This document shows positions 1,474 through 62,329 of a stretch of 64,000 nt of DNA, piece by piece. The first letter of the stretch is position 1. Each line of letters begins with the position of its first letter. Source of the DNA: Candidatus Multivorans sp. Its GTDB lineage: Bacteria; Acidobacteriota; Thermoanaerobaculia; Multivoradales; Multivoraceae. The DNA is taken from assembly GCA_965247095.1 (NCBI GenBank), contig OZ251997.1, positions 2,784,001-2,848,000 on the forward strand, written 5' to 3'. Position numbers and translations under genes: made by a program. A model generated the notes under the pieces. It was given only the letters and a program-made list of their open reading frames with translations. It made no database searches and was not told where the DNA came from.

Positions 1474-1496
1474 CTTCGTGCTGCTCCCTGCCGCTG

Positions 1497-4936: not shown

Positions 4937-5067
4937 GGGCCTCCTCTCTTGAGTCTCGATCTCTGGCGGTGCACTCTAGCGCCTCCGTAACTCGTCTCGG
5001 CGCCGCCGTGCTAACTTGACCTCGACCGTCCAGCCGCCGTCCCAGCCTGAAGGAGCGTGGTACGCGA

Positions 5068-7674: not shown

Positions 7675-7708
7675 GCGAGGATCGCGAGGCGTTGCGGGCG
7701 GAGAACGG

Positions 7709-29324: not shown

Positions 29325-29452
29325 GGATGGCCCTCCTCCTGCTGCTGCGCGCCGGCTTGCGTGCCGCCGCCGCCGACTCTCTATCTCTACCATGGCCCAG
29401 TGTAGGTGAGAATGGGCCGGGCGATCGTCGATCAGCACGGAGGTCCATCGAG

Positions 29453-40928: not shown

Positions 40929-41153
40929 GTGAAGTACACGATCGTGATCGAGAAGGCGCCCGGCAACTTCGCGGCGTATGCGCCTGATCTGCCTGGGTGC
41001 GTGGCAACCGCCGAGACGCGTGCCGAGGTGATCCAGCTCATGCGCGAGGGCATCGCTTTCCACCTTGAGGGCTTGCGCGAAGACGGGGAGCCCGTGCCTC
41101 GGCCTCAAGCCACAGCCGCCGAAGTGGATGTAGTGCTGGGCGTGAGCGCCTAG
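40929..41153 (+). CDS. hicB: HicB antitoxin, short form (copy 1)
   Basis: [42 protein letters not shown]. Confidence 0.93.
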
Positions 41154-41404
41154 GGGCTGAACGGGTACGTCGAGCCAGTCCATTTGGCGTCGGTGCATCG
41201 CCTTGTTCCGCGCCACGGACAGATGGGGCTCTCGACTACCAACCGCCGGACTCGGGGTTTCGGCTGGACGGTCACCGCACATGCCGCGACGAGGTGCGCG
41301 CCCGCGTGACACAAGCCATCGTGACACACGTCGCGTTGTGGGGCTACGATGGCGACTCCGGGAGGTCATCCGGACTGACGAGATTGACAAAGACAGTGAC
41401 GAAG

Positions 41405-42952: not shown

Positions 42953-43001
42953 GTGGACGTTCTTGTTCGCGCGACCATCGGCAGCGCGCCCCGGTTCTGC
43001 A

Positions 43002-43193
43002 ATGCCTAAGGTCCGGGACGCCATTCGTGCGGTGGAGCGGGATGGTTGGCGATGGGTCGCGACGCGGGGAAGTCACCGCCAGTACCGGCACGCGACGAAG
43101 CCCGGCAAAGTGACGATCGCTGGTAAACTGAGCCACGACTTGCCGCCGGGCACCTGGAACAGCATCGTCAAACAGGCTGGGCTCGATAAGTGA
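43002..43193 (+). CDS. hicA: HicA toxin (copy 2)
   Basis: Close paralog of 40730-40921; GSH motif retained. Confidence 0.92.
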   Translation: MPKVRDAIRAVERDGWRWVATRGSHRQYRHATKPGKVTIAGKLSHDLPPGTWNSIVKQAGLDK

Positions 43194-43200
43194 GTAGCTC

Positions 43201-43425
43201 GTGAAGTACACGATCGTCATCGAGAAGGCGCCCAACAACTACGCGGCCTATGCGCCCGACCTGCCCGGCTGCGTGGCAACCGCCGAGACGCGTGCGCGAG
43301 TGATTGAGTTGATGCGCGAGGGCATCGCCTTTCACCTTGAGGGGCTGCGGGAAGACGGGGAGCCAGTGCCTCGACCTCAAGCCACGGCTGTCCAGGTGGA
43401 TGTAGCGCAGGCTGTCGGCGCCTGA
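43201..43425 (+). CDS. hicB: HicB antitoxin (copy 2)
   Basis: Close paralog of 40929-41153. Confidence 0.92.
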   Translation: MKYTIVIEKAPNNYAAYAPDLPGCVATAETRARVIELMREGIAFHLEGLREDGEPVPRPQATAVQVDVAQAVGA

Positions 43426-43462
43426 GGTTGTCGGGACGCGCTCGGCCTGGATAGCTTCGGGC

Positions 43463-43515
43463 CTACGCCGTGACGCGCTGATCGCGAAGCACGTGCCGTG
43501 CGGGAGTACGACGTT
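43463..43515 (+). pseudogene. Possible degraded hsdS C-terminal remnant
   Basis: Reads LRRDALIAKHVPCG, resembling the HsdS end LRDxLLPKLxSGE; short, weak match. Confidence 0.35.
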
Positions 43516-43554
43516 TGGCCGGGTGCCGAGTGCGAGGCTGGCCAGCCGCCCACG

Positions 43555-43980
43555 ATGAGCATCGATACAACCTTCTTCAAGGAGTGCCTCGACCGGCTGG
43601 AGGTCTACTGCCAACTCCTGGACCGCGATCGTGAGGACGAAACGGCTCGCCGGCTTGGGCGAGAGATTTGCATCGAGCGGTTCGAGGTTGCTCTCGAACA
43701 GAGCGGCAAGCTGCTGAGAAAGACGTTGCGTCCGTGGTTCGCAAGCAACCGAGCGGCGGACCGGCTGACGTTCCGGGACGTGTTCCGGCACGCGGCCAAA
43801 CGCGGCCTGATCGACATCGAGGCCGCGGAACGCTGGCTGGGTTACCGCGACAGCCTGATCGGCGCGGGCGAACCGGACGGCGCCGACCCGGCCGTCGTGG
43901 CGGCGGTGGAGCGGCTGCCGGCCTTCGTTGCCGACGCCCGGGCGCTGGCCGCGCTTATCGAGCAGGCGCCCGATGACTGA
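43555..43980 (+). CDS. Nucleotidyltransferase substrate-binding (HI0074-like HEPN) protein lacking RxxxxH
   Basis: IERFEVALEQSGKLLRK, RLTFRDVFRHAAKRGLI, ERWLGYRD; paired with the MNT gene. Confidence 0.8.
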   Translation: MSIDTTFFKECLDRLEVYCQLLDRDREDETARRLGREICIERFEVALEQSGKLLRKTLRPWFASNRAADRLTFRDVFRHAAKRGLIDIEAAERWLGYRDSLIGAGEPDGADPAVVAAVERLPAFVADARALAALIEQAPDD

Positions 43981-44341
43981 AAGCCTCCACTTGCTGCCGC
44001 GCCACCGGGAGCGCCTCGAAGCCCTGCTGCGCGAACACCTCCCCGGCGTGGAGGTCTGGGCCTACGGCAGCCGGGTGAACGGCCAGAGCCACGATGGCAG
44101 CGACCTGGATCTCGTGTTGCGGGGCCGCGGCTTGGATGAGATCGAGCTCTCCGCGCTCGCCGACTTCACTCAGGCGCTCCACGATTCGACCATTCCGTTC
44201 CTGGTTGAGGCCCGCGACTGGGCGCGTCTGCCGGAGCGGTTTCATCGGGAGATCGAGAGGGCGTATGTGGTGTTGAGGCCCCGTTCCATCTGCGCCAACC
44301 TTCGGTCACTCGTCGCGGTGCGCCAGGGGACGCTCCGGTGA
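43973..44341 (+). CDS. Minimal nucleotidyltransferase (MNT), C-terminus joined to unrelated sequence
   Basis: VWAYGSRVNG..SDLDLV motif; PFLVEARDW..FHREIERAYVVL. Confidence 0.85.
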   Translation: MTESLHLLPRHRERLEALLREHLPGVEVWAYGSRVNGQSHDGSDLDLVLRGRGLDEIELSALADFTQALHDSTIPFLVEARDWARLPERFHREIERAYVVLRPRSICANLRSLVAVRQGTLR

Positions 44342-44526
44342 CAGCTCGGGAGTTGGCTGAACGCTTGGAACTCAAGGCACAGCAGATCCAGCGCTACGAA
44401 GCGGAGGGATACGCGAGCGCCAGCTATCGGCGGTTGTGCGAAGTCGCGCATGCAGTGGGGCTGGGGTCGAGAACGAAGATCCGACGCCCTACCGCGCCAG
44501 CGGATCCGGCCGGATCTGGAACTTGA
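44338..44526 (+). pseudogene. XRE-family HTH remnant (HigA-like antitoxin C-terminus)
   Basis: TARELAERLELKAQQIQRYEAEGYASASYRRLCEVAHAVG; N-terminal part missing. Confidence 0.65.
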
Positions 44527-46747
44527 CGAACTTGCCGCGGGTGCCCTTGCCGCCTTCGGTGTGCCAGATGTAGTTGGTGCCGTAGTTGGCCCAGAGGGCG
44601 CGGCCCTTCCAGCCTGCGTCGGGGTCGTCGATGCGGCCGTCGAGGCCGCGGGAGAAGAAGCCGAGCGGGTAGGGGACGCGCAGCGTCGTCCATTCGCCGG
44701 TTTCGGGATCGAGCGCGAGCAGGCTGTCGGAGTTCGACCCGGTGGCGATGGGGGTGTTCTCGCCAAGCCCGGCAACGTCGTGCTGATCGACCCAGTTGTA
44801 GTAGTGGAAGTCGGCCGGCACGTCCGTGCCCTTCATCGTGGGGCCCTCGGTCCGGTACAGGGACCAGCCCTCGGGGCACTGGCTGCCGTCGGGGCTGTCG
44901 GGCTCGTCCCGGGGCTCGCACTTGCGAACGTCCAGGCTCGCCAGGTGGCTGCTGCCGGCGAGAGCCGTCCACACCACGCCGTCGCTGGCGATGTCGATCC
45001 CACGCGGGTCGAAACCGGGTTCCGGGACGCGGAAGATCTGCGACCGGCAACTGGTCGGGGGATCCTCCCCGCGCATCAGACGGATGATGTAGCCCGGATA
45101 GGTCTGGGAGGCGCCCCACACCGAATCATCGACCGGGCTTGGAATGACCGAGTAGAGGCCGTATGAAAGCTGCGTGTCGTACCGGGGATCGGGCGCCGGG
45201 GTGGTCTCGGCCTGTCCCGCTGCGGCTCGTTCCTCCTGGGCCCTGACGGCATCGACCCGGTAGGTGAAGCCGCCCGCAGAGGCGACCGCGACGTTCCAGG
45301 GCTTCGTGATCGCGCCGTCGCCGTTCGTGTCGACGACCAGGGGGCACCAGCCCACGGCCTGCCGCTCGTCGCCGGTCTCGTCGAAGACCTTCGCGTCGAC
45401 CCAGGAAAGGCCGGCGCCGCCGCCGTTGAAGTAGACGGTCTCGTTGGGGTCGTTGTCGAACTGGAGGTGGTGGGTGCTGAAGCAGGTCTCGATCAGCGTG
45501 AACTTCTGGGCCACCGGGTCGAAGAACGAAGCGTGACGGCCGCCTGGCCGGGGCGTCCACCAGGCCGCGTACTTGTTCTCCGGATCGCTGCACCAGGCCG
45601 GAGGCCGCCGCGCTCCGTGGAGCTTCGAAGTCAGCCAGACCCGGCCCTTGCTGTCGATCATCGGATTGTGCGGATCGGAAGGGTTGTAGGGGGGATTGGC
45701 CCAGATGTGCTCGTCGCCCCAGAAGAAGGACGGCCGCATCGGCGGCGGGAAGCGAGACGGGACCTCGTTCCTGGGATCCCTGGTGGGGATGTTCCGGGCG
45801 TAGCTCACGTTCAGGACGGGGTCCAGCACCACGAGCTGGCCGTGGCCGGAACTCGCCGCGTAGACGGGTCCGCCGGCGTTGACCCGCGGGTTGTTCTTGT
45901 CGGTCGACACGAGATCGTGCATGAACGTCTTGTCGCTGCCGACATCCCACAGGGTGAGGACGAGGTTGCGCTCGATCCCCCGCGGCCGCGTCGGCGCCTG
46001 CGGCAGTTCTCCCGCCGCGATCCTCTCGGTCCAGTCCGCGTACACGTCCAAGGACGCTTTCATGCCCTGAAGCCGGAGCACGCTGTACATCTGGTTGCCG
46101 CGGACCCCGGTGCCTAGCCGCCACTCCCAGGCTTCCTTGTGGGTGGTGAGCTCCGGCTTCGCTTCGAACACGTGGTCGACGGTGCGAGTCTGGCGGCTCC
46201 CGAGTTGGTGGCAGAAGTTGCAGTCCGACTTCAGCGAGTCGAGCCAGTGGGCCTGGGACAGCATGCGTGTTCCCATGCCGTTGCCGTCATCTCCCGTGCC
46301 GGGAAAGAGGCTCTCGTCGGGCGGGGCCATCAGCGACAGCCAGTAGTCGCCGGGATAGACCTTCGCCGCTTCCTCTGGAGTCGTTGCGGCGGTTGCCTGG
46401 AGCGTCACCGGGTCGGCCGTGGGTCTGATCTCGAGCGGCGCCGAATCGACCAGGCCGTAGCCCCGCACCCACACGTCGTAGCTCGCGTCGGGCAGTTCCG
46501 GCAGCATGAACCGGCCCTCGTCGTCGGTGACGACGATCTTCACGAACTTCGTCGGCAGGTCCTTCGTCTCGGCGATGACCCAGACGCCGGCTTCGGGGCC
46601 CTGGGCGCTTTGGACGCCGCCGGCGATGAAGCCGTCCGGACCCGCTGTGACGGCTTCTGGAGAGCTCCCAGGCTGCGTGCAGGCGGCAACCAGGAGAAGG
46701 CCGGCGCACAGGGCCGGCCCGGTGAGCCTGAGAAGGGAGGTCGTCAT
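44489..46747 (-). CDS. Lipoprotein with carboxypeptidase-regulatory-like domain, CxxCH heme-c site and beta-propeller
   Basis: LVAAC lipobox; VTDDEGRFMLPELPDASYDVWVRGYG; DCNFCHQ; propeller-type repeats. Confidence 0.75.
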   Translation of the reverse strand: MTTSLLRLTGPALCAGLLLVAACTQPGSSPEAVTAGPDGFIAGGVQSAQGPEAGVWVIAETKDLPTKFVKIVVTDDEGRFMLPELPDASYDVWVRGYGLVDSAPLEIRPTADPVTLQATAATTPEEAAKVYPGDYWLSLMAPPDESLFPGTGDDGNGMGTRMLSQAHWLDSLKSDCNFCHQLGSRQTRTVDHVFEAKPELTTHKEAWEWRLGTGVRGNQMYSVLRLQGMKASLDVYADWTERIAAGELPQAPTRPRGIERNLVLTLWDVGSDKTFMHDLVSTDKNNPRVNAGGPVYAASSGHGQLVVLDPVLNVSYARNIPTRDPRNEVPSRFPPPMRPSFFWGDEHIWANPPYNPSDPHNPMIDSKGRVWLTSKLHGARRPPAWCSDPENKYAAWWTPRPGGRHASFFDPVAQKFTLIETCFSTHHLQFDNDPNETVYFNGGGAGLSWVDAKVFDETGDERQAVGWCPLVVDTNGDGAITKPWNVAVASAGGFTYRVDAVRAQEERAAAGQAETTPAPDPRYDTQLSYGLYSVIPSPVDDSVWGASQTYPGYIIRLMRGEDPPTSCRSQIFRVPEPGFDPRGIDIASDGVVWTALAGSSHLASLDVRKCEPRDEPDSPDGSQCPEGWSLYRTEGPTMKGTDVPADFHYYNWVDQHDVAGLGENTPIATGSNSDSLLALDPETGEWTTLRVPYPLGFFSRGLDGRIDDPDAGWKGRALWANYGTNYIWHTEGGKGTRGKFVKFQIRPDPLAR

Positions 46748-46759
46748 CGGAATTCTCCT

Positions 46760-50723: not shown

Positions 50724-51212
50724 TCAGTCGGTCGGGCCGACCGGTGTGCCGTAGGGGACCGGTGGCTCGCGCTCGCGGGTCGCGCCGACGGCGACGATGC
50801 GCCAGCGCCCCCGTGACGAACGGAGATCGAGGCTCTGGGTCTCGTAGCTCGCCTCCCGCACGTACTCGACCTCGAGCCGCACCTTCCCGCCGAGAACCTC
50901 CTCATCGGTCACCGCGACACCCTTCACCTCGGCGAACCGCTGCCGGAGGTACTGCTCGAACGCGGCGTCTCCCATCTCGTCATGCACCGCTTCCAGTTGC
51001 TCGCGGACCTCACCGGCAAAGAGATCGAGATAGACCGCAACCGCGCCTTCGCGGCTCGCCTCGACCATCTGCCAGAAGACCTCCCGAGGTTCGCCCGCGT
51101 CGGCCGCGTCGCCCGAGCGCTCGGGCAGGCGGTCCCGAAGCGCCACGGCCAGGCCAGCCACCAGCACCAGGACGGTCAGCGCCGTCGCCCCCAGATTGCG
51201 CGTCATCTTCAC
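50724..51212 (-). CDS. Small membrane-anchored hypothetical protein (NTF2-like fold suspected)
   Basis: One N-terminal hydrophobic helix; GTGA overlap with the hflK-like gene; ends in an RGRWRIV beta-strand pattern. Confidence 0.7.
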   Translation of the reverse strand: MKMTRNLGATALTVLVLVAGLAVALRDRLPERSGDAADAGEPREVFWQMVEASREGAVAVYLDLFAGEVREQLEAVHDEMGDAAFEQYLRQRFAEVKGVAVTDEEVLGGKVRLEVEYVREASYETQSLDLRSSRGRWRIVAVGATREREPPVPYGTPVGPTD

Positions 51213-52141
51213 TGCGGTCTGTTCGGTCCGGGGGTCAACTCGCGGCGCAGGAAGTCGATGTCGATCGTGCTCTGGCCGGGCTCCAGGATCGTCTTCTTCA
51301 TGCGGGGGAAGACACGTTCCATCGTCTCTAGAACCATGCGGGTGCGGATCTCGTCGCGCGCGCTCTGGTCGGCGCCGGCGACCCTGCGGAAACGGTCGGC
51401 TTCACCGGTGGCCCGGTCGACCTCTGCGGTCCGGAAGCCCTCGGCCTGCGCTACGAGCGTGCGCGCCTCGCCGCGGGCTACCGGGACCACCTCATTGCCG
51501 TAACTCTCGGCCTCGCGGATCAGGCGGTCCCGGTCCTCGCGCGCGCTGGCCACGTCGTTGAAGGCCTCGCGCACGGGGCTCGGCGGGCTCACGCCTTCCA
51601 GACTCACCGAGAGTACGGTCGCGCCGGTCCCGAAGCGGTCGAACAGCTCCTGCGATGCGGCCTGGACGTTCTGCTGCACGGCCACCTTGCCGGTGGTCAG
51701 CAGTTCGTCGACGCTCATGCCGGCGATCACCTCGAGCAGGGCGCTCCGCCCGCTCGCCTGCAGCAAGGCCTCGACATCGGCGAAGCGCAGCGAGTAGGCG
51801 AGCGGGTCGTGGATCGAGTACAGGATCACCAGCCGGACATGGACCACGTTCCGGTCGCCAGTCAACCAGCGCGCTTCGGCGGCGGAGGAGTCGCCGCCCA
51901 GGACCCGGTCCGCGGCGGCGAAGCCCAGGGTCAGGCGCTTGGCTTCCCGCACCTTCAGCTTGTCGACCCGCCCCACCGGCCGCGGCCAGTTCCAGTGCAG
52001 TCCAGGTCCGGCGGGCGCCACCCTGGCCCGGCCGAGTACCCGCACCACCGCCTCCTCGTCCGGCGCGACGAAGTACACGCCCCAGCCCGCCCACATCAGG
52101 GCCAGGACCAGAGCCGCGGTCGGGAGGCCGCGAAGCCTCAC
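51209..52141 (-). CDS. hflK: HflK-like SPFH protein
   Basis: PGLHWNWPRPV, LTGDRNVV, PPSPVREAFNDVASARED, VPVARGEA. Confidence 0.88.
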   Translation of the reverse strand: MRLRGLPTAALVLALMWAGWGVYFVAPDEEAVVRVLGRARVAPAGPGLHWNWPRPVGRVDKLKVREAKRLTLGFAAADRVLGGDSSAAEARWLTGDRNVVHVRLVILYSIHDPLAYSLRFADVEALLQASGRSALLEVIAGMSVDELLTTGKVAVQQNVQAASQELFDRFGTGATVLSVSLEGVSPPSPVREAFNDVASAREDRDRLIREAESYGNEVVPVARGEARTLVAQAEGFRTAEVDRATGEADRFRRVAGADQSARDEIRTRMVLETMERVFPRMKKTILEPGQSTIDIDFLRRELTPGPNRPQ

Positions 52142-53109
52142 TCGGATCCTCCACCCAGCAGTCGGAAGAGCTCGGAGTCCGCCGACAGGATGAGCGTCGT
52201 CTGGTCGTCCAGGATCGACTCGTAGGACTCGAGGGTGCGCAGGAACCGGTAGAGAGCCGGGTCCTGCCGGTAGGCGTCGCCGTAGATGCCGGCCGCCTCG
52301 GCGTCGCCCTTGCCGCGGAGGATCTCGGCGTCGCGGTAGGCGGCCGCCAGGATCACCTCACGGTCGCGGTCGGCCTCGGCGCGGATGACCATCGCCTGCT
52401 CCTCGCCCTGGGCCCGATACTCCTTGGCGATCCGCTCGCGTTCCGCCCGCATCCGGGCATAGACGGACTCCAGGTTCTGCTCCGGGAAGCTCAGGCGGAC
52501 GAGCTGCACCTCCAGGATCTCGACCCCGAGTTGAGGGCCGGACACGGCGCCCGCGGATTCCCGGACCTCGGCGGAGATTTGTTCGATCCGCAGTTGCCGG
52601 GGCTCGGTCGACACGAGCTGTGAGAGTTCCGTGCGGCCGAGCGCGGCCGCCAGACCGGCCCACACCACGTCGTGCAGGCGCATCTCGGCGCCCGAGATGT
52701 CGCCGATCGTCTCAAGGAACCGGGCCGGGTCGGCGATCCGCCAGACGACCGCGGTATCGACGACCAGGTTCTTCTTGTCCTGGGTCAGGAACTCGACCGG
52801 CGCCGGATCGTAGAGGAGCACCCGGTTGTCGAAGCGGAGCCGGCGGTCGATCGGCAACTTGAACTGAAGCCCCGGCGCTTCGATCGTTCGAACCGGCTTG
52901 CCGAAACGGGTGACGATCGCGCTCTCGGTCTCCGGTACGACGAACACGGAGCGGGCCAGCGCGACGACGGCCAGCACGGCCAGACCGCCGCGCCACCAGG
53001 ACGTGGCCCGGCCGGGCGCGTGCTCCTGCCCGTCACCGTTCCTGGGCACCCGGGCATCCTTGCCCGCATCCGGGTGGTCGTCGTGACTTCCGTGGCTTTG
53101 ATCAATCAT
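52138..53109 (-). CDS. hflC: HflC-like SPFH protein with His-rich N-terminus
   Basis: IVTRFGKP, FLTQDKKNLVVD, RMRAERERIAKEYRAQGEE, YRFLRTLESY; ATG 53109 overlaps the ATPase TGA. Confidence 0.9.
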   Translation of the reverse strand: MIDQSHGSHDDHPDAGKDARVPRNGDGQEHAPGRATSWWRGGLAVLAVVALARSVFVVPETESAIVTRFGKPVRTIEAPGLQFKLPIDRRLRFDNRVLLYDPAPVEFLTQDKKNLVVDTAVVWRIADPARFLETIGDISGAEMRLHDVVWAGLAAALGRTELSQLVSTEPRQLRIEQISAEVRESAGAVSGPQLGVEILEVQLVRLSFPEQNLESVYARMRAERERIAKEYRAQGEEQAMVIRAEADRDREVILAAAYRDAEILRGKGDAEAAGIYGDAYRQDPALYRFLRTLESYESILDDQTTLILSADSELFRLLGGGSE

Positions 53110-56100
53110 TGGTCTACCTCGTTCTGGGCAGTGCCCGGTGGAGGAACGTACACATCGAGAAGGCGGTCGCCCGGCTCGTCCACGAAGACGAAGCGCTTGC
53201 GGCCGGCGTCGGCGTCGGTGATCAGCTTCGGTCTGCCGGCGAGTGAGCTCTCCAGCGTCTCCAGTTGGAGGCGGAAGCGGTGGAGGTTGAGATCGCGCCG
53301 GTACCCTCCGGCGCGCAGTTCGAAGCGCCGGCTCTCGCCGCGACCGGCCTCGACTCGCTCGTTCCGATAGCCCTCGGCCTCGAGGAGTTGCCGTTGCGCT
53401 TCGCCGCGGGCAACGGGCAGGCGTTCCAGGGCGTAACCCTCCGCCTGGTCGATCAGGGTCTCCCGCTCCTCGAGCGCGCTCGCCGCGTCGCGGAACGCAT
53501 CGACCACATCGAGCGGCGGATGAGCGTCCTGAACGGTGGCGCTGACCACTTCGACGCCGATGCCGAGGCGGTCGAGCACGGCGGCGAGGTGCTCGCTCCA
53601 GGCGCGCTCGATCCCCTCCCGCTTGCCGGTCAGCACGTCGTCCAGCGAGTGGCTGGCGAGCACGGTGCGCAGGGAGCGCTCGGCGCTCGCTTCGACCAGG
53701 AGCGCCGGATCGGCTGTGGCGAATGCGAATGCGGCGGGGTCGGCGACGCGGTAGTGGACGCGGGCGGCGACCTCGACAAGGTTCTCGTCCCCGGTCAGCA
53801 TAAGTCGTTCGAGCGGCGGCGTCTCGTCGAAACCGGCGTGGCGCACGTTCCACTCGTAGGTCGCTTCGCCGCCGGTTGCTCCGTAGGCCCCGGTTGGCGC
53901 CGGCGACCTGGGTGAACCGACGGCGGCCACCCGCAGGCGATCCGGCTCGACGCGGGTGACCCGATCAACCGGCCACGGCCAGCGCCAGTGCAGACCCGGA
54001 CCGAGCTCGTCGCCGACGTGGCGGCCGAAGCGCTGCACCAGACCGACTTCCTGCGGTGCGATCGTCCGCACTCCGGCCCCCGCCCAGACCGCGAAGAGCA
54101 CGAACGGCGCCGCGCGCAGCAGCCGCGGCGCCAGCGACCGGAGTCGCGCCGGGCTGGCCTCGAGGGCGTGTTCGAGGCGGTGGACGGCCTCACGCCGGCC
54201 GGCGTTCCACGATCTCCAGCCGGCGGCCATCCCCTCCGCCGCTCCGGCGAGAGCGGGGAAGCGGCCGAGACGGCCGCCTGGCCGTTCGGCCACCGCGCGA
54301 CCCTCGTAGAGCAGACGAACGCAGTTCAGGATGACCAGCAGGGAGGCGGCCTGATGGACGATCGCCGCGGCGGCCGGAGGCAGCCAGCCGAAGGCCGCGA
54401 AGCCGACGGCGACGAAGTTGATGCCGAAGGCGAAGACCAGGATGCTGCTGCGGATCCGCGCCACCACCCGGCGCGAGTACCGCAGCAGCGGCGCCAGGTA
54501 GTCGAGCCGGTCAGGCAGCAGCACGACCTGGGCTGCCTCGGCAGAGAGGTCCGCCGCGCCGTGACCGATCGCGACGCCGACCGTGGCGGCCGCGAGCGAC
54601 GGCGCATCGTTGATCCCGTCGCCCACCATGAGAACGTTGCGGTTGCCGCGCGAGAGGTCCCTGAGCCGGCGCACCTTGTCTTCGGGGAGGACCTCCGCGT
54701 GGACCTGGTCGATGCGGGTTCGGCGGCCGATCGCCCTGGCCGTCGCTTCGGCGTCGCCGGTCAGCATGACGATCGGGTCGACGCCGGCTCGCCGCAGGTC
54801 GGCGACCGCGTCGGTCGCCTCGTCGCGCAGCGGATCGGCAAGCGCGATCGCGCCGGCGAAGGCGCCGTCGACCGCTACGGCGAGCCGCGTCTCGCCGCTG
54901 CCCGGGGTCGGCTGGAGGCTCTCCGCGATGGCGTCGAGGTCGTCCTCGTTCACCACGTCGGCCAGGAGCGCCGGGTTGCCGACCGCGATGTCGTGGCCAA
55001 GGGCGGTGGCGGTCACGCCCCGGCCGGGGTGCAGCTTGAAGCTCTCGGGCTCCGACAGCGCGAGTTGCCGCTCGCGGGCCTCGGTCACCAGCGCCCGGCC
55101 GAGCAGGTGTTCCGAGGTCAACTCGGCGCTGGCCGCGAGTTGGAGCAGTCGATCCTCCGCCACGCCCGGGGCGGGCAGGATCGCGGCCAGGGCCGGACGC
55201 CCGCAGGTCAAAGTACCCGTCTTGTCGAGCACGCAGGCATCGATCCGCGACAGCGACTCGATCACGTCCCCGCCCTTGACCAGGGCGCCCTCGCGCGCCA
55301 GCCGGGCGATTGCGGAAGCCATCGCCGCCGGCGTCGCCAGCACCAGCGCGCACGGGCAGGCGACGATCAGGGCCGCCACCGTGCGCATCATCTCGCCGGT
55401 GAAGAAGTAGATGGCGGCGGCGGCCACGAGCACGGCAGGCAGGAAGTACCGGGCGAGCTTGTCCGCGGTGCGTACGACCCGCGCCCGCCGGCTCTGCGCG
55501 TCCTCGATCAGGTTGGCGATGCGGGCGACCGTGGTGTCGCTGCCGGTGCGTTCGGAGCGGATGTCGAGGACGCCGTACTCGTTCAGGCTGCCGCTCCACA
55601 CCGCATCGCCGACGCCGAGTTCGGCGGGCAACGGTTCGCCGGTCACGCTGCTCTGGTCGACCGACGACTCGCCGCGTTCGATCGTGCCGTCGACCGCCAC
55701 CCGCTCGCCGGCGAGCACCCGCACCAGGTCGCCGACTTCGACCTGGTCCAGGCCGACGAATTCCTCGCCGCCGTCGCGCAGCACCCGCACCTGGTCCGGC
55801 TGGCTGGCGACGAAGCCGGCGATCGCCCCCTTGGCGCGGTCGACCGTCCAGTGCTCGATCCCCTCGCCGATCAGCATGATGAACATGACCTCGGCGGCAG
55901 CGAAGTACTCGCCGATCGCGACCGCCGCGCCGGCCGCGATGGCAATCGTCAGGTGCGACGAGAAGTGCCCGCGCAGCAGGTCGAGGATCGCGTGGCGGAT
56001 GAGCGGATAGCCCGCGACCAGGGTCAGGATCAGCGCCAGGTCGATGCCGGCGACGTTGCGCAGCGCGCCGGTCAGGTACAGCAGGAGCAGCACGCCGACC

Positions 56101-56183
56101 GCGCCGCAGAGCGCGATGTAGCCGATCCGCTGCAGCAGGCCGTGGCTATGGCCGTGCCCGTCGTCGTGGAAGTGTGCGCCCAT
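53106..56183 (-). CDS. P1B-type heavy-metal ATPase fused to a C-terminal HflK/SPFH domain
   Basis: His-rich N-terminus, VTGEP, ACPCAL, DKTGT, GDGINDAP; then in frame PGLHWRWPWP, LTGDENLV, PPLDVVDAF, LPVARGEA. Confidence 0.92.
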   Translation of the reverse strand: MGAHFHDDGHGHSHGLLQRIGYIALCGAVGVLLLLYLTGALRNVAGIDLALILTLVAGYPLIRHAILDLLRGHFSSHLTIAIAAGAAVAIGEYFAAAEVMFIMLIGEGIEHWTVDRAKGAIAGFVASQPDQVRVLRDGGEEFVGLDQVEVGDLVRVLAGERVAVDGTIERGESSVDQSSVTGEPLPAELGVGDAVWSGSLNEYGVLDIRSERTGSDTTVARIANLIEDAQSRRARVVRTADKLARYFLPAVLVAAAAIYFFTGEMMRTVAALIVACPCALVLATPAAMASAIARLAREGALVKGGDVIESLSRIDACVLDKTGTLTCGRPALAAILPAPGVAEDRLLQLAASAELTSEHLLGRALVTEARERQLALSEPESFKLHPGRGVTATALGHDIAVGNPALLADVVNEDDLDAIAESLQPTPGSGETRLAVAVDGAFAGAIALADPLRDEATDAVADLRRAGVDPIVMLTGDAEATARAIGRRTRIDQVHAEVLPEDKVRRLRDLSRGNRNVLMVGDGINDAPSLAAATVGVAIGHGAADLSAEAAQVVLLPDRLDYLAPLLRYSRRVVARIRSSILVFAFGINFVAVGFAAFGWLPPAAAAIVHQAASLLVILNCVRLLYEGRAVAERPGGRLGRFPALAGAAEGMAAGWRSWNAGRREAVHRLEHALEASPARLRSLAPRLLRAAPFVLFAVWAGAGVRTIAPQEVGLVQRFGRHVGDELGPGLHWRWPWPVDRVTRVEPDRLRVAAVGSPRSPAPTGAYGATGGEATYEWNVRHAGFDETPPLERLMLTGDENLVEVAARVHYRVADPAAFAFATADPALLVEASAERSLRTVLASHSLDDVLTGKREGIERAWSEHLAAVLDRLGIGVEVVSATVQDAHPPLDVVDAFRDAASALEERETLIDQAEGYALERLPVARGEAQRQLLEAEGYRNERVEAGRGESRRFELRAGGYRRDLNLHRFRLQLETLESSLAGRPKLITDADAGRKRFVFVDEPGDRLLDVYVPPPGTAQNEVDQ

Positions 56184-56199
56184 CAGGAGGGTGCGCCGC

Positions 56200-56955
56200 T
56201 CACACCGCGAACAGCAACATGGCCAGCCCCGAACTCGCGATCGCGAGGCCGCTCAGCGTGTGCGCGTAGGCCCGCAGGCCGGGGAATCGCACGAAGTCGA
56301 GGCCCCGGTAGGCGAGGGCCACGACCGCCGCCATCGTCGCGATCGTCGTCACCCCGAAAGCCACGGTCACCGGCACCACCGCCCACAGGCCGACCTGGAA
56401 GGCGGGCACCATCAGGATGGGGATCAGCGGCTCGCAGGGCCCGAGCACGAAGATGACGAACAGGCTCCAGGCGGTGACGCCGGCGACCCCGGCGGCTTTG
56501 CCGGACGGGTGCTCGTGGCCGCCGGCCGTGGGATGGTCATGCGAGTGGACGAGCCCGCCGGCGTGCTCATGAACGTGCCGCTGCGACCTGCGTCGACGCG
56601 CCAGCGACCAGGCGGCGTAGGTCAGCCCGAAGACGACGAGCGCCCAGGCCGCCAGGTCCCCGCGCACCGCTTCGATCGACTCGAAACTGCCGACGCGGCC
56701 CTGCATCCAGTGGTAACCCTCGCGGGTGTCGAGACCGGTAGCGAAGATCGCCAGCCCGATGCCGGCGCCGCCGAGCAGGATCGACGACGCGACGTGGCCG
56801 CCGCCGCACAGCCCGGTGATCCACAGTGTCCGGCGCAGCGACCATCCGCGCGCCTTGCCCAGGACCACGAACGGCAGCGTGTGATCGATGCCGATCACCG
56901 TGTGAACGAAGCCGATGCCGACCGCGGCCGAGACCAGGACCCAGACTGTGTCCAT
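56200..56955 (-). CDS. His-rich NiCoT/UreH/RcnA-like metal permease
   Basis: HTVIGIDH (HxxxxxDH), GGGH, HVHEH..HSHDH loop, GPCEP, about 6 TM segments. Confidence 0.78.
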   Translation of the reverse strand: MDTVWVLVSAAVGIGFVHTVIGIDHTLPFVVLGKARGWSLRRTLWITGLCGGGHVASSILLGGAGIGLAIFATGLDTREGYHWMQGRVGSFESIEAVRGDLAAWALVVFGLTYAAWSLARRRRSQRHVHEHAGGLVHSHDHPTAGGHEHPSGKAAGVAGVTAWSLFVIFVLGPCEPLIPILMVPAFQVGLWAVVPVTVAFGVTTIATMAAVVALAYRGLDFVRFPGLRAYAHTLSGLAIASSGLAMLLFAV

Positions 56956-56993
56956 GAAGCGCCGAGGGTACCAGCGCGGTGACCCTGGGAACC

Positions 56994-57096
56994 CGGGTGG
57001 CGCGATGCGCGCCACCCGCGACCCACTCGTGCGCCCGTCATGGGGCGCACGGAGTGGCACGCGGGCATCTTGCCCGCATCCGGCGCGAAGCGCCGG
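56994..57096. repeat. Four consecutive GC-rich hairpins (REP-like cluster or structured leader)
   Basis: CGGGTGGCGCG/CGCGCCACCCG; CCACTC-GTGCGCCC/GGGCGCAC-G-GAGTGG; GCGGGCA/TGCCCGC; CCGGCGC/GCGCCGG. Confidence 0.75.
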
Positions 57097-57097
57097 C

Positions 57098-59944
57098 CTA
57101 CTCGACCGTCACCCAGATCGGCGACGACCAGGCGATCTCCCGATTCTTCTGGATCACCCGCACATAGTAGTAGTGCTCGCCGGGCTCGACGTCGCTGTCG
57201 ACGAAGGTCAGGCTGACCTCCTGTTCGAGGTTCTGGCGGTTGTAGAGGAAGGTCTGGTCGCGGATGATGTCGATCTGCTCGATGCGGGCGGTGCCGATCA
57301 CGTTGACCACAAGCTCGAAGCGGCCCGAAACCTCGGCGATGTCGCCCTGCAGGTACTCGCGACCGTTCGCGCGCATCCGGTAGTCGAGGACGATGTTGTC
57401 GGTCGCTGCATAGGAGTGGCGCTTCTTCATCGCGTCCAGGAGGCCCCCGGCGGTGAAGTCCTCGGCGATCGTGGCGGCGTAGGAGATGTGGGTCGAGATG
57501 TGGTCCGACGCGGCCTGCACGCCGAGCTTGTAGCCCTTGGCCCATGCGTTCCAGACGAACCCGGCGGGCTCGAAGCCGCCCTGCTGGCCGATCGGTTTCT
57601 CCGCGGTCGCGGCGCGGGGAGCGCCCTCGTACTCGGCCGACGTGCGGTCGCCCTGGTAGATCTCGACCAGCGGTTCGACGTCGGGATCGTTGTCGCGCCA
57701 GTCGGTGCCCATGCCGGTGGCCGAGGTGTGGGGGATCGAGATCGCGTCGTGCTCCCGGAGGTAAGCGAACAGCCTCGCCGCACCTTCTTCGTGTTCTTGC
57801 TCCGCCTCGGTGATCGGCAGGGTCGGGATGCCGCGCTTGGCCGAGAGGATGTTGCGGTGGCCGTCCGGATAGCTGATGCTGCGCTCGTAGGTGTAGACGG
57901 GCACGAAGCTCCCCGGCAGACGGAAGATGTCGGCGATCTGCGGGTGTAGCCAGTTCACGTATTCGATGTCCTGGCCGCCCAGGTTGTTGTGCTCGCTGAC
58001 GCCCAGGAAGTCGAGTTCGGCGGCGTCGAGGGCGTAGCGGTAAGCCTCCATCAACGAACCGTCGTTCAGACCGTCGTGCGAGAACTCCGTGTGGCGGTGG
58101 GTGTCGCCGCGGTAGATGCGGTAGGTGCGGCCTTCCGATTCGATCGTGTAGGCGCGGATGCGGGCCACGTCTTCGGCCTCGTTGGGGTGGACCGGGTAGG
58201 TGTGGTATTCGCGCACGTCCGGGTCGACGAGCCGCGGCGGCGTGGCCTCGCCGGTCAGCGCGGGGAGCTTCGCCGCGTTGATCGAGGAGTGGTCGAACAG
58301 GTACTCCTCGGAGTCCCGGTTGTCCGTCGGCCAAGCCGCGAACAGGTTGCCCCGGCCGTCCGAGGCCAGCTCCCAGCGCACGTCCTGGCGGCCGCGACTG
58401 AACGGCAAGTGGAGCGGCCGCGTCCATGCGCCGCCGACGTAGGCGGTGCCGTGGAGCTGCCAGACCGCGCGGTGGGCCGGCGTGAAGTCCGGCGTGTCGC
58501 GCGCCCGGATCGTGCGGTGGCGGAAGAACAGCCACATCCGGCCGTCGGCGTCGGTCTGGAGCACGGGCAGGTCGTTGAAGCCCGTGATGTACTCGGGGAG
58601 TTCCTGTTCGAGCAGCTCGTTCACGTCGGCTGCGGGAACCTGCCAGCGGACGCCGTCCCACACCGCGACCGCCAGGGAGCGCCACTCGTAGATACGGGTG
58701 GCTTCCTTGTAGATCTCGAAGCCCGAGTCCTTGCCCCACTGGAAGCCGCTCTCGTTCCAGGCCGCCCAGAGTCGGTTCTGCCGATCGCAGGCGATCGAGA
58801 CGTGGGCCTCGAACTTCGGCGTGTCGGCGACCGGGGCCGTGTCGCCCCAGCGCTCGCCGGAGAAGCGGCGCAGCAGGATGTCGTAGTTGCCCTGGTCGTA
58901 GGTGTCCCAGGCGACGTAGACGGAACCGTCACCGCAGGCCGCGACAGCCGGCGTCCAGTCGTTGGCGGGCGAGGCCGAGACCGTCTCCTCGGCCGACCAG
59001 CCCGAGCCGTCGTGGCGCCGGGCGAGGATGTCGGAGCGGCCGTCGCGGAAGCCCTGCCACACGAGCCACAGATTGCCGCTCGAGTCCGTGACGAGCTCGT
59101 GTTCGATATCCGCCTGGGGCGCGGAGGTCAGGCGCTCGGTTGCCGACCAGTCGCCGGTGTCCGCGTCCTCGAGATAGCGGCCGTAGAGGTCGAAGTTGGC
59201 GTCGACCTGCTCGGACCAGACCAACCAGGGCCTACCCTGGCCGTCGCGGCCCAGTTTCGGCATCAGCCGGTCGCCCGGCTCGTCGGTCACGGGGACCGCC
59301 GGCTGCCAGGTCGAGCCGTCGAAGCGGCGCGCCATGATCGAGACGCCGCCGTCCCGGTAGGCGGTCCAGGCGGCCCAGACCTCACCGTTCTCGCCGCTTG
59401 CCAAGGTCGCGAAGTCGTTCTCGTCGTCCGGCGACGACAGCGGCTCGGCCGGCGCGACCCGGTCGGCCAGCACAGCGCCGTCGAGGAAGGAGAGCTCCTC
59501 GTCAACGTCGAGGTCCGCCGGCCGCAAGTCGAAGTCGCCCCGCGGCGTCGTGAACGCAAGCCGCGTCCCACCGCCGCCCGCCACGTCGACGACGATGCCG
59601 GGCTGATGCAGGTAGGTCACCGTTCCCAGCGGGTCCTCCCACTGGTACACCCGCCGCGGGTAGTTCATGCCCTCCCGCGTCGCCATCGTCCAGGCGAGAC
59701 CGTCGACCGTCTCGGTCGGATGCACACTCCAGTTGCGGACGGCCAGCACCTCGCCGCCCGTGGCCTCGACCGAACCATCCCACGTCTGCGTTTCCGTGTC
59801 CGTGATGCCGAACCGGACTCTGACCGAGACGACGTCGTCGCCCGCAAGCGGCGGAATCGCCTGTGCGGTGAGGGAACCTGCCGCGAGGACCAGGGCAGGA
59901 AGGCAGCAGAGAGCGGCGGCGCGCAGGACGAATTGTCGAGCCAT
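57098..59944 (-). CDS. Exported beta-propeller + DUF3604/PHP-fold metallohydrolase (paralog B2)
   Basis: Signal peptide; RGDTHRHTE, SEHN, GHRN, IPHTSATGMGTDWRDND, ASDH; ends AWSSPIWV. Confidence 0.75.
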   Translation of the reverse strand: MARQFVLRAAALCCLPALVLAAGSLTAQAIPPLAGDDVVSVRVRFGITDTETQTWDGSVEATGGEVLAVRNWSVHPTETVDGLAWTMATREGMNYPRRVYQWEDPLGTVTYLHQPGIVVDVAGGGGTRLAFTTPRGDFDLRPADLDVDEELSFLDGAVLADRVAPAEPLSSPDDENDFATLASGENGEVWAAWTAYRDGGVSIMARRFDGSTWQPAVPVTDEPGDRLMPKLGRDGQGRPWLVWSEQVDANFDLYGRYLEDADTGDWSATERLTSAPQADIEHELVTDSSGNLWLVWQGFRDGRSDILARRHDGSGWSAEETVSASPANDWTPAVAACGDGSVYVAWDTYDQGNYDILLRRFSGERWGDTAPVADTPKFEAHVSIACDRQNRLWAAWNESGFQWGKDSGFEIYKEATRIYEWRSLAVAVWDGVRWQVPAADVNELLEQELPEYITGFNDLPVLQTDADGRMWLFFRHRTIRARDTPDFTPAHRAVWQLHGTAYVGGAWTRPLHLPFSRGRQDVRWELASDGRGNLFAAWPTDNRDSEEYLFDHSSINAAKLPALTGEATPPRLVDPDVREYHTYPVHPNEAEDVARIRAYTIESEGRTYRIYRGDTHRHTEFSHDGLNDGSLMEAYRYALDAAELDFLGVSEHNNLGGQDIEYVNWLHPQIADIFRLPGSFVPVYTYERSISYPDGHRNILSAKRGIPTLPITEAEQEHEEGAARLFAYLREHDAISIPHTSATGMGTDWRDNDPDVEPLVEIYQGDRTSAEYEGAPRAATAEKPIGQQGGFEPAGFVWNAWAKGYKLGVQAASDHISTHISYAATIAEDFTAGGLLDAMKKRHSYAATDNIVLDYRMRANGREYLQGDIAEVSGRFELVVNVIGTARIEQIDIIRDQTFLYNRQNLEQEVSLTFVDSDVEPGEHYYYVRVIQKNREIAWSSPIWVTVE

Positions 59945-60298: not shown

Positions 60299-60356
60299 GG
60301 GTCGTCTTCGTGTCCCTCGGCGAGTATCTGCGCTGATCTTGGCGGCGCTACACTGA
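60295..60356 (+). pseudogene. Eroded PIN-toxin 5' remnant
   Basis: GTGA overlap with the RHH gene; MRVVF then frameshifted VSALI, compared with the family N-terminus MRVVFDTNVLVSALI. Confidence 0.6.
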
Positions 60357-60385
60357 TTCATTCATTTGCTCGAGGGAGGTTCGCC

Positions 60386-62329
60386 GTGCGCCGAATAGTC
60401 GTTTTGATCCTGAGCCTGACCGTACTTCTGTTCCTCGGTTGCGCCGCCGGCGACTCCGACTCATCCGACCCCTCCGCGGCCGCTGCCGGCGCGTCCGCTG
60501 CCGCCGGACCGCCCGCGGACCGCCAGGCCTTCTTCGGCGACCTGCACGTCCACACGCGCTACTCCTACGACGCCTTCGTGTTCGCCACCCGCGCCGGTCC
60601 CGACGAGGCCTACGAGTTCGCCAAGGGGAACCCGATCCAGCACCCCGCCGGCTTCGATCTCCAGCTCGACCGGCCGCTGGACTTCCAGGGCGTCGCGGAC
60701 CATGCGAACTACCTCGGGATGCTGCCGGCGATGATGGACCCCGGCTCTCCGGCCTACAACCACCCGGCGGCCGAAACCGTGCGCACCGCGCAGACCGTGA
60801 CCGAGCGGCGGGGCATCTTCCGCGCCATGCAGCCCTACGTGCGTTACATGGAGGACGCCGATCCGAGCATTCGCGAGCACCTCAACAAGGATGTCGTGCG
60901 TTCCGCCTGGAGCGAGATCGCGGCCTCGGCGAACCGCCACTACGAGCCCGGCGTGTTCACGACCTTCATCGCCTACGAGTACACGTCCGCCGGCGCCGGA
61001 GGCATCTACGAGAACCTGCACCGCAACGTCGTCTTCCGCGGCGCCGAGGCGCCCGACATCCCCTTCTCACGGCTCGACTCCTACAACCCGGAGGACCTGT
61101 GGGCCCGGATGGACGAGTGGCGCGCCGACGGCTTCGAGGCGATCGCGATCCCCCACAACACGAACGGCTCCGGCGGACGCATGTTCGAGTACGAGTACTT
61201 CGAGGGCGGCGCCATCGATCAGGCCTACTCGGATCTCCGCAGCCGCAACGAGCCCGTCGTCGAAATCACCCAGACCAAGGGAACCTCGGAGACCCACCCC
61301 GCGCTGTCGCCGAACGACGAATGGGCTGGTTTCGAGATCATGCCCTACCGGGTCTCGACCAGCATTGCGAGCGAGCCGCCGGGCAGCTACGTGCGCGACG
61401 CCTTCCGCCGCGGCCTCACGATCGAGGCCGGCGGCGTGTCGAACCCGTACAAGGTCGGCGTGATCGGCTCGTCCGACACTCACGTCGCCGCCGGCGCCTT
61501 CGACGAGGAGACCTACTGGGGCGCCTCGGGCCTCATGCAGCAGACCGCCGAGCAGCGCGGCTCGGTGCCCAGCGAGCCCGCCGGGGCGGGAGCGAGCTTG
61601 CAGGAGCCCAGCGCCGCCGCGCAGCCGGTCGACGACGGCACTGGCCGCATCTACCCCTTCACGACGGCGATCACCAACGGCGCCTCGGGCCTCGCCGCTG
61701 TCTGGGCCAACGAGAACACCCGCGAGTCGATCTTCGACGCCATGCGCCGCAAGGAGACCTTTGGCACCAGCGGTACCCGGATCCAGGTCCGTTTCTTCGG
61801 TGGCGCCGCACTCTCGGGCCTCGATCTCGACGACCCGGACCTCGTCGCGGCCGCGTACGAGGCTGGCGTCGCGATGGGCGGCGACCTCACCGATGAGAGC
61901 GGTGGCGAAGCACCGAGCTTCCTCGTTTGGGCGATGCAGGACACCATGGCGGCACCGCTACAGCGCGTCCAGATCGTCAAGGGCTGGGAATCAGACGGCG
62001 AGACAGCCGAACAGGTCTACGACGTCGCCTGCTCCGACGGCCTCGAGGTCGACCCGGCCACTCACCGTTGCCCCGACAACGGCGCCACCGTCGATCTCAC
62101 CGACTGCTCAATCAGCACCGATGTCGGCGCCGGCGAACTCAAGACCCTCTGGACAGACCCCGACTTCGACCCGGGCCAGCGCGCCTTCTACTACGCCCGG
62201 GTCCTCGAGAACCCCACCTGCCGCTGGTCGTCCTGGGATGCGATCCGAGCCGGTACAACTCCCCGCCAGGACTTCCCGGCAATCATCCAGGAACGCGCCT
62301 GGTCGTCGCCGATCTGGTACACGCCGTAG
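60386..62329 (+). CDS. Canonical DUF3604 lipoprotein (paralog C)
   Basis: FLGC lipobox; FFGDLHVHTRYSYDA, NLHRNV, IPHN, QTKGTSETHP, SSDTH, IQERAWSSPIWY. Confidence 0.9.
   Translation: MRRIVVLILSLTVLLFLGCAAGDSDSSDPSAAAAGASAAAGPPADRQAFFGDLHVHTRYSYDAFVFATRAGPDEAYEFAKGNPIQHPAGFDLQLDRPLDFQGVADHANYLGMLPAMMDPGSPAYNHPAAETVRTAQTVTERRGIFRAMQPYVRYMEDADPSIREHLNKDVVRSAWSEIAASANRHYEPGVFTTFIAYEYTSAGAGGIYENLHRNVVFRGAEAPDIPFSRLDSYNPEDLWARMDEWRADGFEAIAIPHNTNGSGGRMFEYEYFEGGAIDQAYSDLRSRNEPVVEITQTKGTSETHPALSPNDEWAGFEIMPYRVSTSIASEPPGSYVRDAFRRGLTIEAGGVSNPYKVGVIGSSDTHVAAGAFDEETYWGASGLMQQTAEQRGSVPSEPAGAGASLQEPSAAAQPVDDGTGRIYPFTTAITNGASGLAAVWANENTRESIFDAMRRKETFGTSGTRIQVRFFGGAALSGLDLDDPDLVAAAYEAGVAMGGDLTDESGGEAPSFLVWAMQDTMAAPLQRVQIVKGWESDGETAEQVYDVACSDGLEVDPATHRCPDNGATVDLTDCSISTDVGAGELKTLWTDPDFDPGQRAFYYARVLENPTCRWSSWDAIRAGTTPRQDFPAIIQERAWSSPIWYTP

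Follow-up and report, generated by a model that had tools for sequence, protein, structure and literature searches.

HflK and HflC assemble into a large membrane cage around FtsH, and stomatin-family proteins regulate channels, in that an SPFH protein forms a physical association with a membrane transport protein which it is presumed to modulate or organise. The effect of SPFH cages (HflK/C, prohibitins, stomatins, flotillins) on the membrane proteins that they enclose is an open question, and their clients are loosely bound and disputed. The E. coli HflK/HflC-FtsH assembly has been solved (PDB 7vhp, 7wi3, 9cz1, 9cz2), with HflK residues 79-355 modelled according to the available text of one study (PMC12048511). 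The stretch of DNA considered here (the window) comprises 64,000 nucleotides of high G+C content from Candidatus Multivorans sp., phylum Acidobacteriota, at C1:2784001-2848000 of a genome (G000) that consists of a single contig of 4.62 Mb and is 98.96% complete. At window positions 50724-56955 it carries five minus-strand genes, identified by open reading frame (ORF) listing and junction reading, which encode a permease, a P1B-type metal ATPase fused to HflK (ATPase::HflK), an HflC paralog, a second, free HflK paralog (HflK2) and a small anchored protein. No description of a P-type ATPase/HflK (SPFH) fusion was found in the full-text literature, in which subscription journals are mostly uncovered, and the metal exporter::HflK layout appears to be unstudied. 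Public annotation labels such fusions 'HflK' or 'Cu+-exporting ATPase', which hides their architecture.

The SPFH proteins of the cluster resemble those of the E. coli system, since HflK- and HflC-type paralogs score above the NCBIfam cut-offs and share a predicted layout of an internal N-terminus, one transmembrane (TM) helix, a periplasmic SPFH domain, a coiled coil and a C-terminal region. Unlike E. coli, which has two paralogs, the window has three, and these are extra to a canonical pair. Its fused HflK bears a whole metal pump on the cytoplasmic N-terminus, together with an additional loop containing Trp and His (W/H loop). Stomatin associations differ again, being non-covalent and homo-oligomeric, whereas the window encodes a gene fusion within what is probably an HflK/HflC-type hetero-oligomer.

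The ATPase::HflK fusion is confirmed as a real gene. The initial annotation described it as one uninterrupted frame, and it is indeed a single ORF, in which Pfam recognises E1-E2_ATPase at residues 127-297, Hydrolase (HAD) at 314-533 and Band_7 at 707-917. A large protein search returned 213 relatives at E<=0.001; domain content was taken from the 120 listed, and 119 of these contain PF00122, PF00702 and PF01145 together, the exception being a 733-aa piece without PF00122. Identity among the relatives from the junction to the C-terminus drops to 37%. A stop or frameshift between the ATPase and SPFH parts had been named among the observations that would undo the proposal, and none was seen in contigs of four public runs from four studies, in which the frame is intact over the junction; the only length changes nearby are a compensating -1/+1 pair at 54093/54096 in one run and an in-frame loss of 3 bases at 54277 in another. 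That a sequencing or assembly error joined two genes is thus extremely improbable, because the same architecture recurs in relatives from many sources and in 9/9 genomes of the genus, and because the frame is kept in contigs of independent studies.

The distribution of the fusion was surveyed with a query that began where the pump ends and extended through the last residues of HflK, and full-length fusions were taken to be open frames of about 1000 aa or more in which the query was covered from residue 1-3 to about 440 or beyond. Such fusions occur in 20 of 401 sampled genomes of the phylum Acidobacteriota, a denominator that takes in two genomes (G152 and G049) with ordinary HflK matches only. 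The fusion is carried at 82-100% identity by all nine genomes of the genus and at 39-43% identity by 11 genomes from three further families of Acidobacteriota; the remaining genomes of this order or class among the 401 yielded no ATPase-type fusion. Among the Planctomycetota, 4 of 301 sampled genomes contain frames of about 1000 aa. The source names of the relatives include Acidobacteriota, Holophagales and Blastocatellia, and one ATPase-type locus (L069) is assigned by name to the Gemmatales. In a profile search of genome contigs with the full-length fusion alignment, which was dominated by ordinary P-type ATPases, 1 of the 80 loci kept is a fusion (L069).

Individual loci depart from this pattern. 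In one further genome, G393 (L129, G393:C1:1956000-1972000), a frame change inside the HflK part, at about 7456-8371, breaks the fusion, which is recovered as two tblastn pieces in different frames with an open frame of 391 aa only; this is either a pseudogene or a sequencing error. In L128 (G260, 3933-8945) and near G186:C1 position 4459133, the fusion frames are 1671 aa and 1274 aa long and extend upstream of the ATPase start, which may reflect either an extra N-terminal part or a mere stop-free stretch of high-GC DNA.

When the window proteins were searched by tblastn, the order fusion-HflC-HflK2 was recovered in 13 of 13 related ATPase-type loci, including that of the Gemmatales, so that the neighbourhood conservation called for in the initial annotation holds across phyla. 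The scaffold is also joined to other exporters, as weaker matches in the survey, with open frames of about 600 and 750 aa, led to other exporter::HflK fusions. Four scanned frames join an SO_0444-family Cu/Zn efflux permease (Pfam ArsP_1) to HflK, and of the three that were compared with NCBIfam, two score 358 and 356 bits on NF033936 (cut-off 300) and the third 211, below the cut-off. One further frame joins a cation diffusion facilitator (CDF) to HflK, with Pfam Cation_efflux at 63 bits, above its cut-off, and TIGR01297 at 76.8 bits, slightly under its cut-off of 82.35. HflC and then a free HflK directly follow the fusion in 7/7 of the SO- and CDF-type loci, so that both partners are found in their places in each of the 20 related loci.

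A search of 1.84 billion proteins (50%-identity representatives) with the linker-plus-HflK part gave 7957 matches at E<=0.001, of which the best 150 were sorted. Among these best 150, the 25 proteins of 900 aa or more are all ATPase::HflK, and the 70 proteins of 450-899 aa comprise 33 Cation_efflux::Band_7, 7 ArsP_1::Band_7, 18 N-truncated ATPase fusions and 12 with Band_7 only, while the 55 shorter proteins lie outside the domain scan. The taxonomic range of the CDF and SO fusions is drawn from a few source names and from the genome samples of two phyla. The SO_0444::HflK and CDF::HflK proteins are like the window fusion in placing the exporter N-terminal to HflK, in the HflC and free HflK genes that follow and in a W/H-bearing loop, and unlike it in belonging to unrelated transporter families without an ATPase. 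The most powerful argument for a link between scaffold and metal export is therefore that three unrelated exporter families join the same end of HflK, with the same two partner genes; the use of this HflK/HflC trio with SO_0444-type permeases and CDF transporters in place of the ATPase is new. Here, in contrast to other SPFH clients, the client is welded to the scaffold, so that it is named and its topology is fixed, and the pump with and without its scaffold offers a clean genetic handle.

In L136 (G093:C1:1600000-1614000, at 3260-4849), a locus of SO type, ABC-3 (PF00950) and ABC-ATPase genes of a kind used for metal uptake come directly after the free HflK, and in L138 a VWA protein with a CopC domain precedes the fusion and a tyrosinase gene lies nearby.

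The window HflC scores 223.3 bits against TIGR01932 (cut-off 134.4) and HflK2 187 bits against TIGR01933 (cut-off 159.4), and Pfam finds Band_7 in both. The window HflC has a His/Asp-rich cytoplasmic N-terminal tail, which is strongly poly-His in two relatives from the genus (L131 and L132) and absent from other lineages; the tail is a metal-related feature on a scaffold subunit, gained by HflC in this genus. The genome has eight Band_7 matches, and the proposed check for a separate housekeeping hflKC located a canonical pair, with hflK (272 bits) next to hflC (247 bits), some 820 kb from the cluster. Because this pair exists elsewhere in the genome, the view that the SPFH set of the cluster is an extra, dedicated one is supported. 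The reported absence of ftsH and hflX from the window was also correct, the single ftsH of the genome lying at G000:C1:3168363-3168920 and hflX at C1:1704463-1705458. In a quick maximum-likelihood tree of 77 SPFH sequences, several of which have long branches, HflC and HflK are split with a Shimodaira-Hasegawa-like approximate likelihood-ratio test (SH-aLRT) support of 100, and housekeeping HflK makes up a clade of its own (SH-aLRT 97). HflK2 groups with housekeeping HflK (27 rows, SH-aLRT 95), and the fused HflK rows fall outside.

The pump part is of P1B type on three grounds, namely a TIGR01525 score above cut-off (541.5 bits against 346.25), the catalytic motifs and a Cys/Pro motif in membrane helix M4. 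In an alignment of 18 fusions with 41-91% identity to the window protein (A1), D320-K-T-G-T324, T181-G-E183, G521-D-G-x-N-D-x-P528 and C276-P277-C278 (CPC) in M4 are invariant, as are N589 in M5 and H610, Q611, S614 and N620 in M6. The pump is like the described P1B ATPases (sCoaT 7qbz, CopA 3rfu, ZntA 4umv) in having a full P1B core with eight helices and the DKTGT, TGE and GDGxNDxP motifs, and scores against the three structures, which represent P1B-4, P1B-1 and P1B-2, are near-equal (316.7, 314.8 and 291.4 bits, respectively). Its N-terminus is His-rich, without a classical ferredoxin-like metal-binding domain. The pump is unlike them in the fusion of its C-terminus to HflK and in the combination of CPC in M4 with H-Q-A-A-S in M6.

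Two subgroups were considered for the pump, and neither was accepted. P1B-1 (Cu+) ATPases have CPC in M4, YN in M5 and MxxSS in M6; the window protein has I-N589 rather than Y-N in M5, and in M6 His in place of Met and A-S in place of S-S, and its TIGR01511 score of 389.2 bits is under the cut-off of 397. The best alignment of M5-M6 is with sCoaT, in which the window H-Q-A-A-S lies opposite H-E-G-S-T, and in the available text of the sCoaT study P1B-4 is defined by SPC in M4 and HEGxT in M6, whose His and Glu are taken to be an internal counter-ion and a release residue, respectively (PMC8880997). Assignment to P1B-4 (sCoaT, CzcP, CtpD type) was rejected, as M4 has CPC, not SPC, and M6 keeps only the His and a hydroxyl residue. 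The CPC and H-Q-A-A-S combination thus fits neither of the motif sets compared. The two Cys of CPC and the His of H-Q-x-x-S suggest a soft or borderline divalent ion as cargo, for example Zn, Co, Ni or Cd, although sequence does not allow the metal to be named. The fused pump is the only P-type ATPase match in the genome (PF00122 1, TIGR01525 1), and the Cation_efflux model, which matches 14/14 control genomes, has no CDF match there; for these reasons the fused pump looks like the main transition-metal exporter of the organism.

The AlphaFold2 model of the fusion (mean predicted local distance difference test score (pLDDT) 71.9, predicted template modelling score 0.50) has eight pump helices, a ninth hydrophobic helix at 679-702 and then the SPFH domain. 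With eight helices the C-terminus of the pump would be cytoplasmic, and the ninth helix would therefore put the SPFH domain in the periplasm, where that of E. coli HflK also lies. The linker between the pump and the ninth helix varies in length and sequence across A1, with in-frame length changes in related strains, and is modelled with pLDDT<50 at 631-653 and as a helix at 643-675. The HflK part matches TIGR01933 over residues 705-994 at 182.8 bits (cut-off 159.4), covering model positions 1-252 of 261, and alignments to E. coli HflK cover its residues 88-349 for fused HflK and 82-345 for HflK2, so that nearly all of the cage-building regions are included for both.

The W/H loop distinguishes the fused HflK from its paralogs. 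The loop, at about 756-801, is about 20 residues longer in the fused HflK than in HflK2 or housekeeping HflK, and contains a YEWNxxH motif (Y776, E777, W778, N779, H782) that is invariant in the 18 fusions. Among the rows shown, 6 of the 7 of ATPase type have YEWNxxH; the remaining one (Gemmatales) and the CDF type have W-x3-H, and three of the four of SO type have QWHS or GWHS. A Trp...His loop is thus common to the fused HflK of three exporter classes, and HflK2 and housekeeping HflK are without it.

Taken together, the observations point, with somewhat better than even confidence, to a dedicated three-paralog HflK/HflC-type SPFH scaffold built around the metal exporter. The cytoplasmic C-terminus of the pump would run through a linker of about 54 residues into the HflK membrane helix, and the fused HflK would join the co-translated HflC and the free HflK2 in a large alternating ring or cage of the E. 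coli HflK/C type, with its HflK positions shared by pump-bearing and free subunits. Exporters would thereby be clustered in one fenced membrane patch, with the periplasmic outlets of the pumps placed under or beside the SPFH wall, and the His-rich tails of the pump and HflC may collect cytoplasmic metal at the patch. By homology with E. coli HflK/C, we infer that the cage may be closed, that the pump may be carried by only some HflK subunits, that it may lie inside and that a periplasmic metal compartment may result; the stoichiometry, the metal, the physiological purpose (detoxification or supply to periplasmic enzymes) and any FtsH link are equally conditional. The arrangement suggests that some Acidobacteriota and Planctomycetota export metal from within a fenced patch of membrane, which in this organism would include the only P-type ATPase.

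Several points weigh against this interpretation. Two HflK-type genes to one HflC-type gene are hard to reconcile with a ring of simple 1:1 alternation, short of competition between subunits or a ring unlike that of E. coli, and the structure model is moderate in quality and silent on oligomers. The neighbours beyond the trio vary, and the function is therefore not tied to one pathway. Moreover, the fused HflK of the three exporter classes form a polytomy in the tree (supports 88-89), so that independent fusions cannot be told apart from domain swaps, and unfused HflK of other phyla score as high against CDF-fused HflK as the fused ones do; fused HflK therefore does not stand sharply apart as a sequence family. 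A bolder version, to which we give a low probability, is that the three SPFH paralogs form a vault over an inner-membrane patch that encloses the outlets of several tethered exporters, giving a protein-walled periplasmic metal compartment. Metal in such a vault would be held, buffered or handed to secreted metalloenzymes, not freely diffusing. As the same vault genes join P1B ATPases, SO_0444 permeases and CDF transporters, the vault would be a general, previously unrecognised organisation of metal export in several bacterial phyla, and it would be the first SPFH cage with a client fixed by the gene structure itself.

The alternatives to this scaffold differ in what they would have the SPFH proteins do. 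A tentative possibility, with perhaps one chance in a few, is that the purpose is metal supply and not detoxification, the scaffolded exporter loading periplasmic or secreted metalloenzymes or redistributing scarce metal, with the SPFH patch as the hand-over site. A signal-peptide DUF3604-like protein is encoded directly upstream in the genus and in one distant locus (L121), a canonical DUF3604 gene is divergent in the window, sulfatase genes lie beside L121 and L126, and metal-uptake-kind ABC genes come directly after the SO-type L136 trio. The canonical DUF3604 gene is nevertheless adjacent in only 3 of 20 related loci, other neighbours differ between loci, the small anchored protein is without conserved metal ligands, and a pump that is the only P-type ATPase of a genome in which no CDF was found is also an obvious candidate for detoxification. 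The initial suggestion that the many metallohydrolases nearby are clients is likewise weak, in that the DUF3604-like gene adjoins only in the genus and L121.

We regard as unlikely that the HflK part is a built-in adaptor which brings the exporter to FtsH-HflK/C for degradation or quality control as metal supply changes, with HflC and HflK2 only completing the ring. HflK/C is a known FtsH partner, and FtsH hexamers touch HflK SPFH domains inside the chamber, according to the available text (PMC12048511). The genome has one ftsH, the parts score above the cut-offs of the NCBIfam 'FtsH protease activity modulator' models, and the Arg aligned to E. coli HflK chain Arg193 ('SALRGV') is kept in fused and housekeeping HflK, with Leu in HflK2; the same text names Arg191 of E. 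coli HflK as the FtsH contact, and whether this is the aligned chain residue 193 is uncertain (PMC12048511). On the other hand, a canonical hflKC pair is already there for FtsH, a permanent protease tether would seem a high price to pay when the cell has no other P-type ATPase, and ftsH was never met in the 13 ATPase-type and 7 other loci, where no dedicated search for it was made. FtsH-independent roles of HflK/C have also been reported, as far as the available text goes (PMC12005517).

A regulator acting locally, without a closed cage, is less likely still. The SPFH part would gate its own pump, sense periplasmic metal through the W/H loop or tune lipids, in small oligomers with HflC and HflK2. 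The restriction of the loop to the fused HflK of all three exporter classes and its invariant residues agree with such a role, for which the stomatins offer an analogy. Against it, all three paralogs keep the coiled coil and the C-terminal region by which the E. coli cage is closed, two more co-translated scaffold subunits would be superfluous for an intramolecular regulator, and the loop is modelled with pLDDT below 50, so that it provides no structural argument. The dedicated scaffold around the exporter thus remains the interpretation that we prefer.

The cluster was described initially as a five-gene unit with the last four genes coupled by ATGA/GTGA overlaps and with His-rich tracts in the permease, ATPase and HflC N-terminus. 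The gene layout (Table 1) bears out the overlaps, the permease stop being separated from the ATPase start by 16 nt, and the His-rich tracts can be read directly in the translations, at the ATPase N-terminus, in the central loop of the permease and at the HflC N-terminus.

Table 1. Features of the five-gene cluster and of its surroundings, in window positions
Feature	Positions	Strand	Description
Permease	56200-56955	-	251 aa, six-helix, His-rich central loop
ATPase::HflK	53106-56183	-	1025 aa, single open frame
P1B-type ATPase part	54309-56183	-	residues 1-625; His-rich N-terminus, 8 predicted TM helices
Cytoplasmic linker (predicted)	54150-54308	-	residues 626-678; part disordered, part long helix; from M6 to HflK membrane helix
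HflK part of the fusion	53106-54149	-	residues 679-1025; TM helix, SPFH, coiled coil, C-terminal region
HflC paralog	52138-53109	-	323 aa; ATG overlaps TGA of the fusion (ATGA)
HflK2 (second, free HflK paralog)	51209-52141	-	310 aa; GTGA overlap
Small anchored protein	50724-51212	-	162 aa; GTGA overlap
DUF3604-like protein	57098-59944	-	948 aa, signal peptide
Canonical DUF3604 protein	60299-62326	+	731 bits
HsdM-type N6 DNA methylase, followed by small pair	41069-44338	+	methylase 353 bits
Large gene	44492-46759	-	756 aa
Large gene	26541-29528	-	996 aa
Palindrome	57028-57051		24 bases, perfect; G000:C1:2841028-2841051

The permease alignment contains invariant HTxxGxDH, CGxxH and GPCEPLIP motifs, and the six helices fall into two repeats whose motifs lie in helices 1 and 4. 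The family has 971 relatives, mostly unannotated, with PF13386 (DsbD_2) on 10 of the 120 listed and with 'nickel/cobalt exporter' and 'TauE' among the JGI names. No Pfam or NCBIfam family, NicO included, matches the permease at E<=0.01, and at up to E=10 Pfam gives DUF6203 alone (E=0.41). The description of the gene as NiCoT-like was therefore too specific. In the structure model (pLDDT 76), Foldseek finds nothing at E<=0.001; the match to CcdA (5vkv) has E 2.8 and TM-scores of 0.48/0.53, not above background, and in VIA the same comparison gives Z 7.0 over 194 residues at 18% identity, tied with unrelated transporters. The permease resembles RcnA/NicO, UreH-like DsbD_2 proteins and CcdA in its six helices, two-fold repeat and His-rich central loop, and differs from them in lacking a family model match and in a CcdA fold match that is only at background. 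It is probably a divalent-metal transporter, as its motifs and His-rich loop suggest, and may be of LysE/DsbD-like kind. A homolog with 44-45% identity is divergent upstream in L126, L127 and L129, which represent a single other family, and co-directional in the genus, and the permease is a lineage-specific accessory that is not in all loci.

The small protein, with a Rv0361_Cterm score of 23.1 bits, under the cut-off, and a weak SnoaL_3 match, probably consists of an N-terminal anchor and an NTF2-like periplasmic domain; its neighbours in the atlas are unnamed Acidobacteriota clusters, followed by DUF4864 and DUF4878. It was found by tblastn in 9 of 13 ATPase-type loci, to which ORF reading adds L122 and L124. 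Its gene comes after HflK2 in the genus loci as well as in L122 and L124-L129, occupies another place in L121 and was not detected in L069; the protein is an accessory of ATPase-type loci in this phylum. Neither the small protein nor the permease was seen in the SO/CDF-type loci examined. A role of the small protein as a periplasmic metallochaperone was not favoured, as it has no conserved His, Cys or Met.

Upstream of the permease, the 948-aa signal-peptide protein has a partial DUF3604 match, and a full-length homolog with 35% identity adjoins the fusion in L121. The canonical DUF3604 gene, transcribed divergently, adjoins the cluster in three genus loci only. Further neighbours vary by locus and include sulfatases, which flank L121 and L126, a DUF3604-like protein, helicases and transposases.

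Elsewhere in the window, a small pair of genes with NTase_sub_bind and nucleotidyltransferase domains comes after the HsdM-type methylase gene, and this pair may be a toxin-antitoxin-like module. Two large genes, at 44492-46759 and 26541-29528, are coding-like in composition and have no Pfam match at E<=0.001. Summed contig depth from four metagenome runs rises to 1000-3300 at 56906-57100. Between the DUF3604-like gene and the permease lies a perfect palindrome, CGTGCGCCC-N6-GGGCGCACG, which was considered as the operator of a metal regulator and rejected because it is a genome-wide repeat, with 55 sites in the 4.6-Mb genome and 0 sites for a reversed control pattern; it looks like a repetitive extragenic palindromic (REP)-like repeat family.

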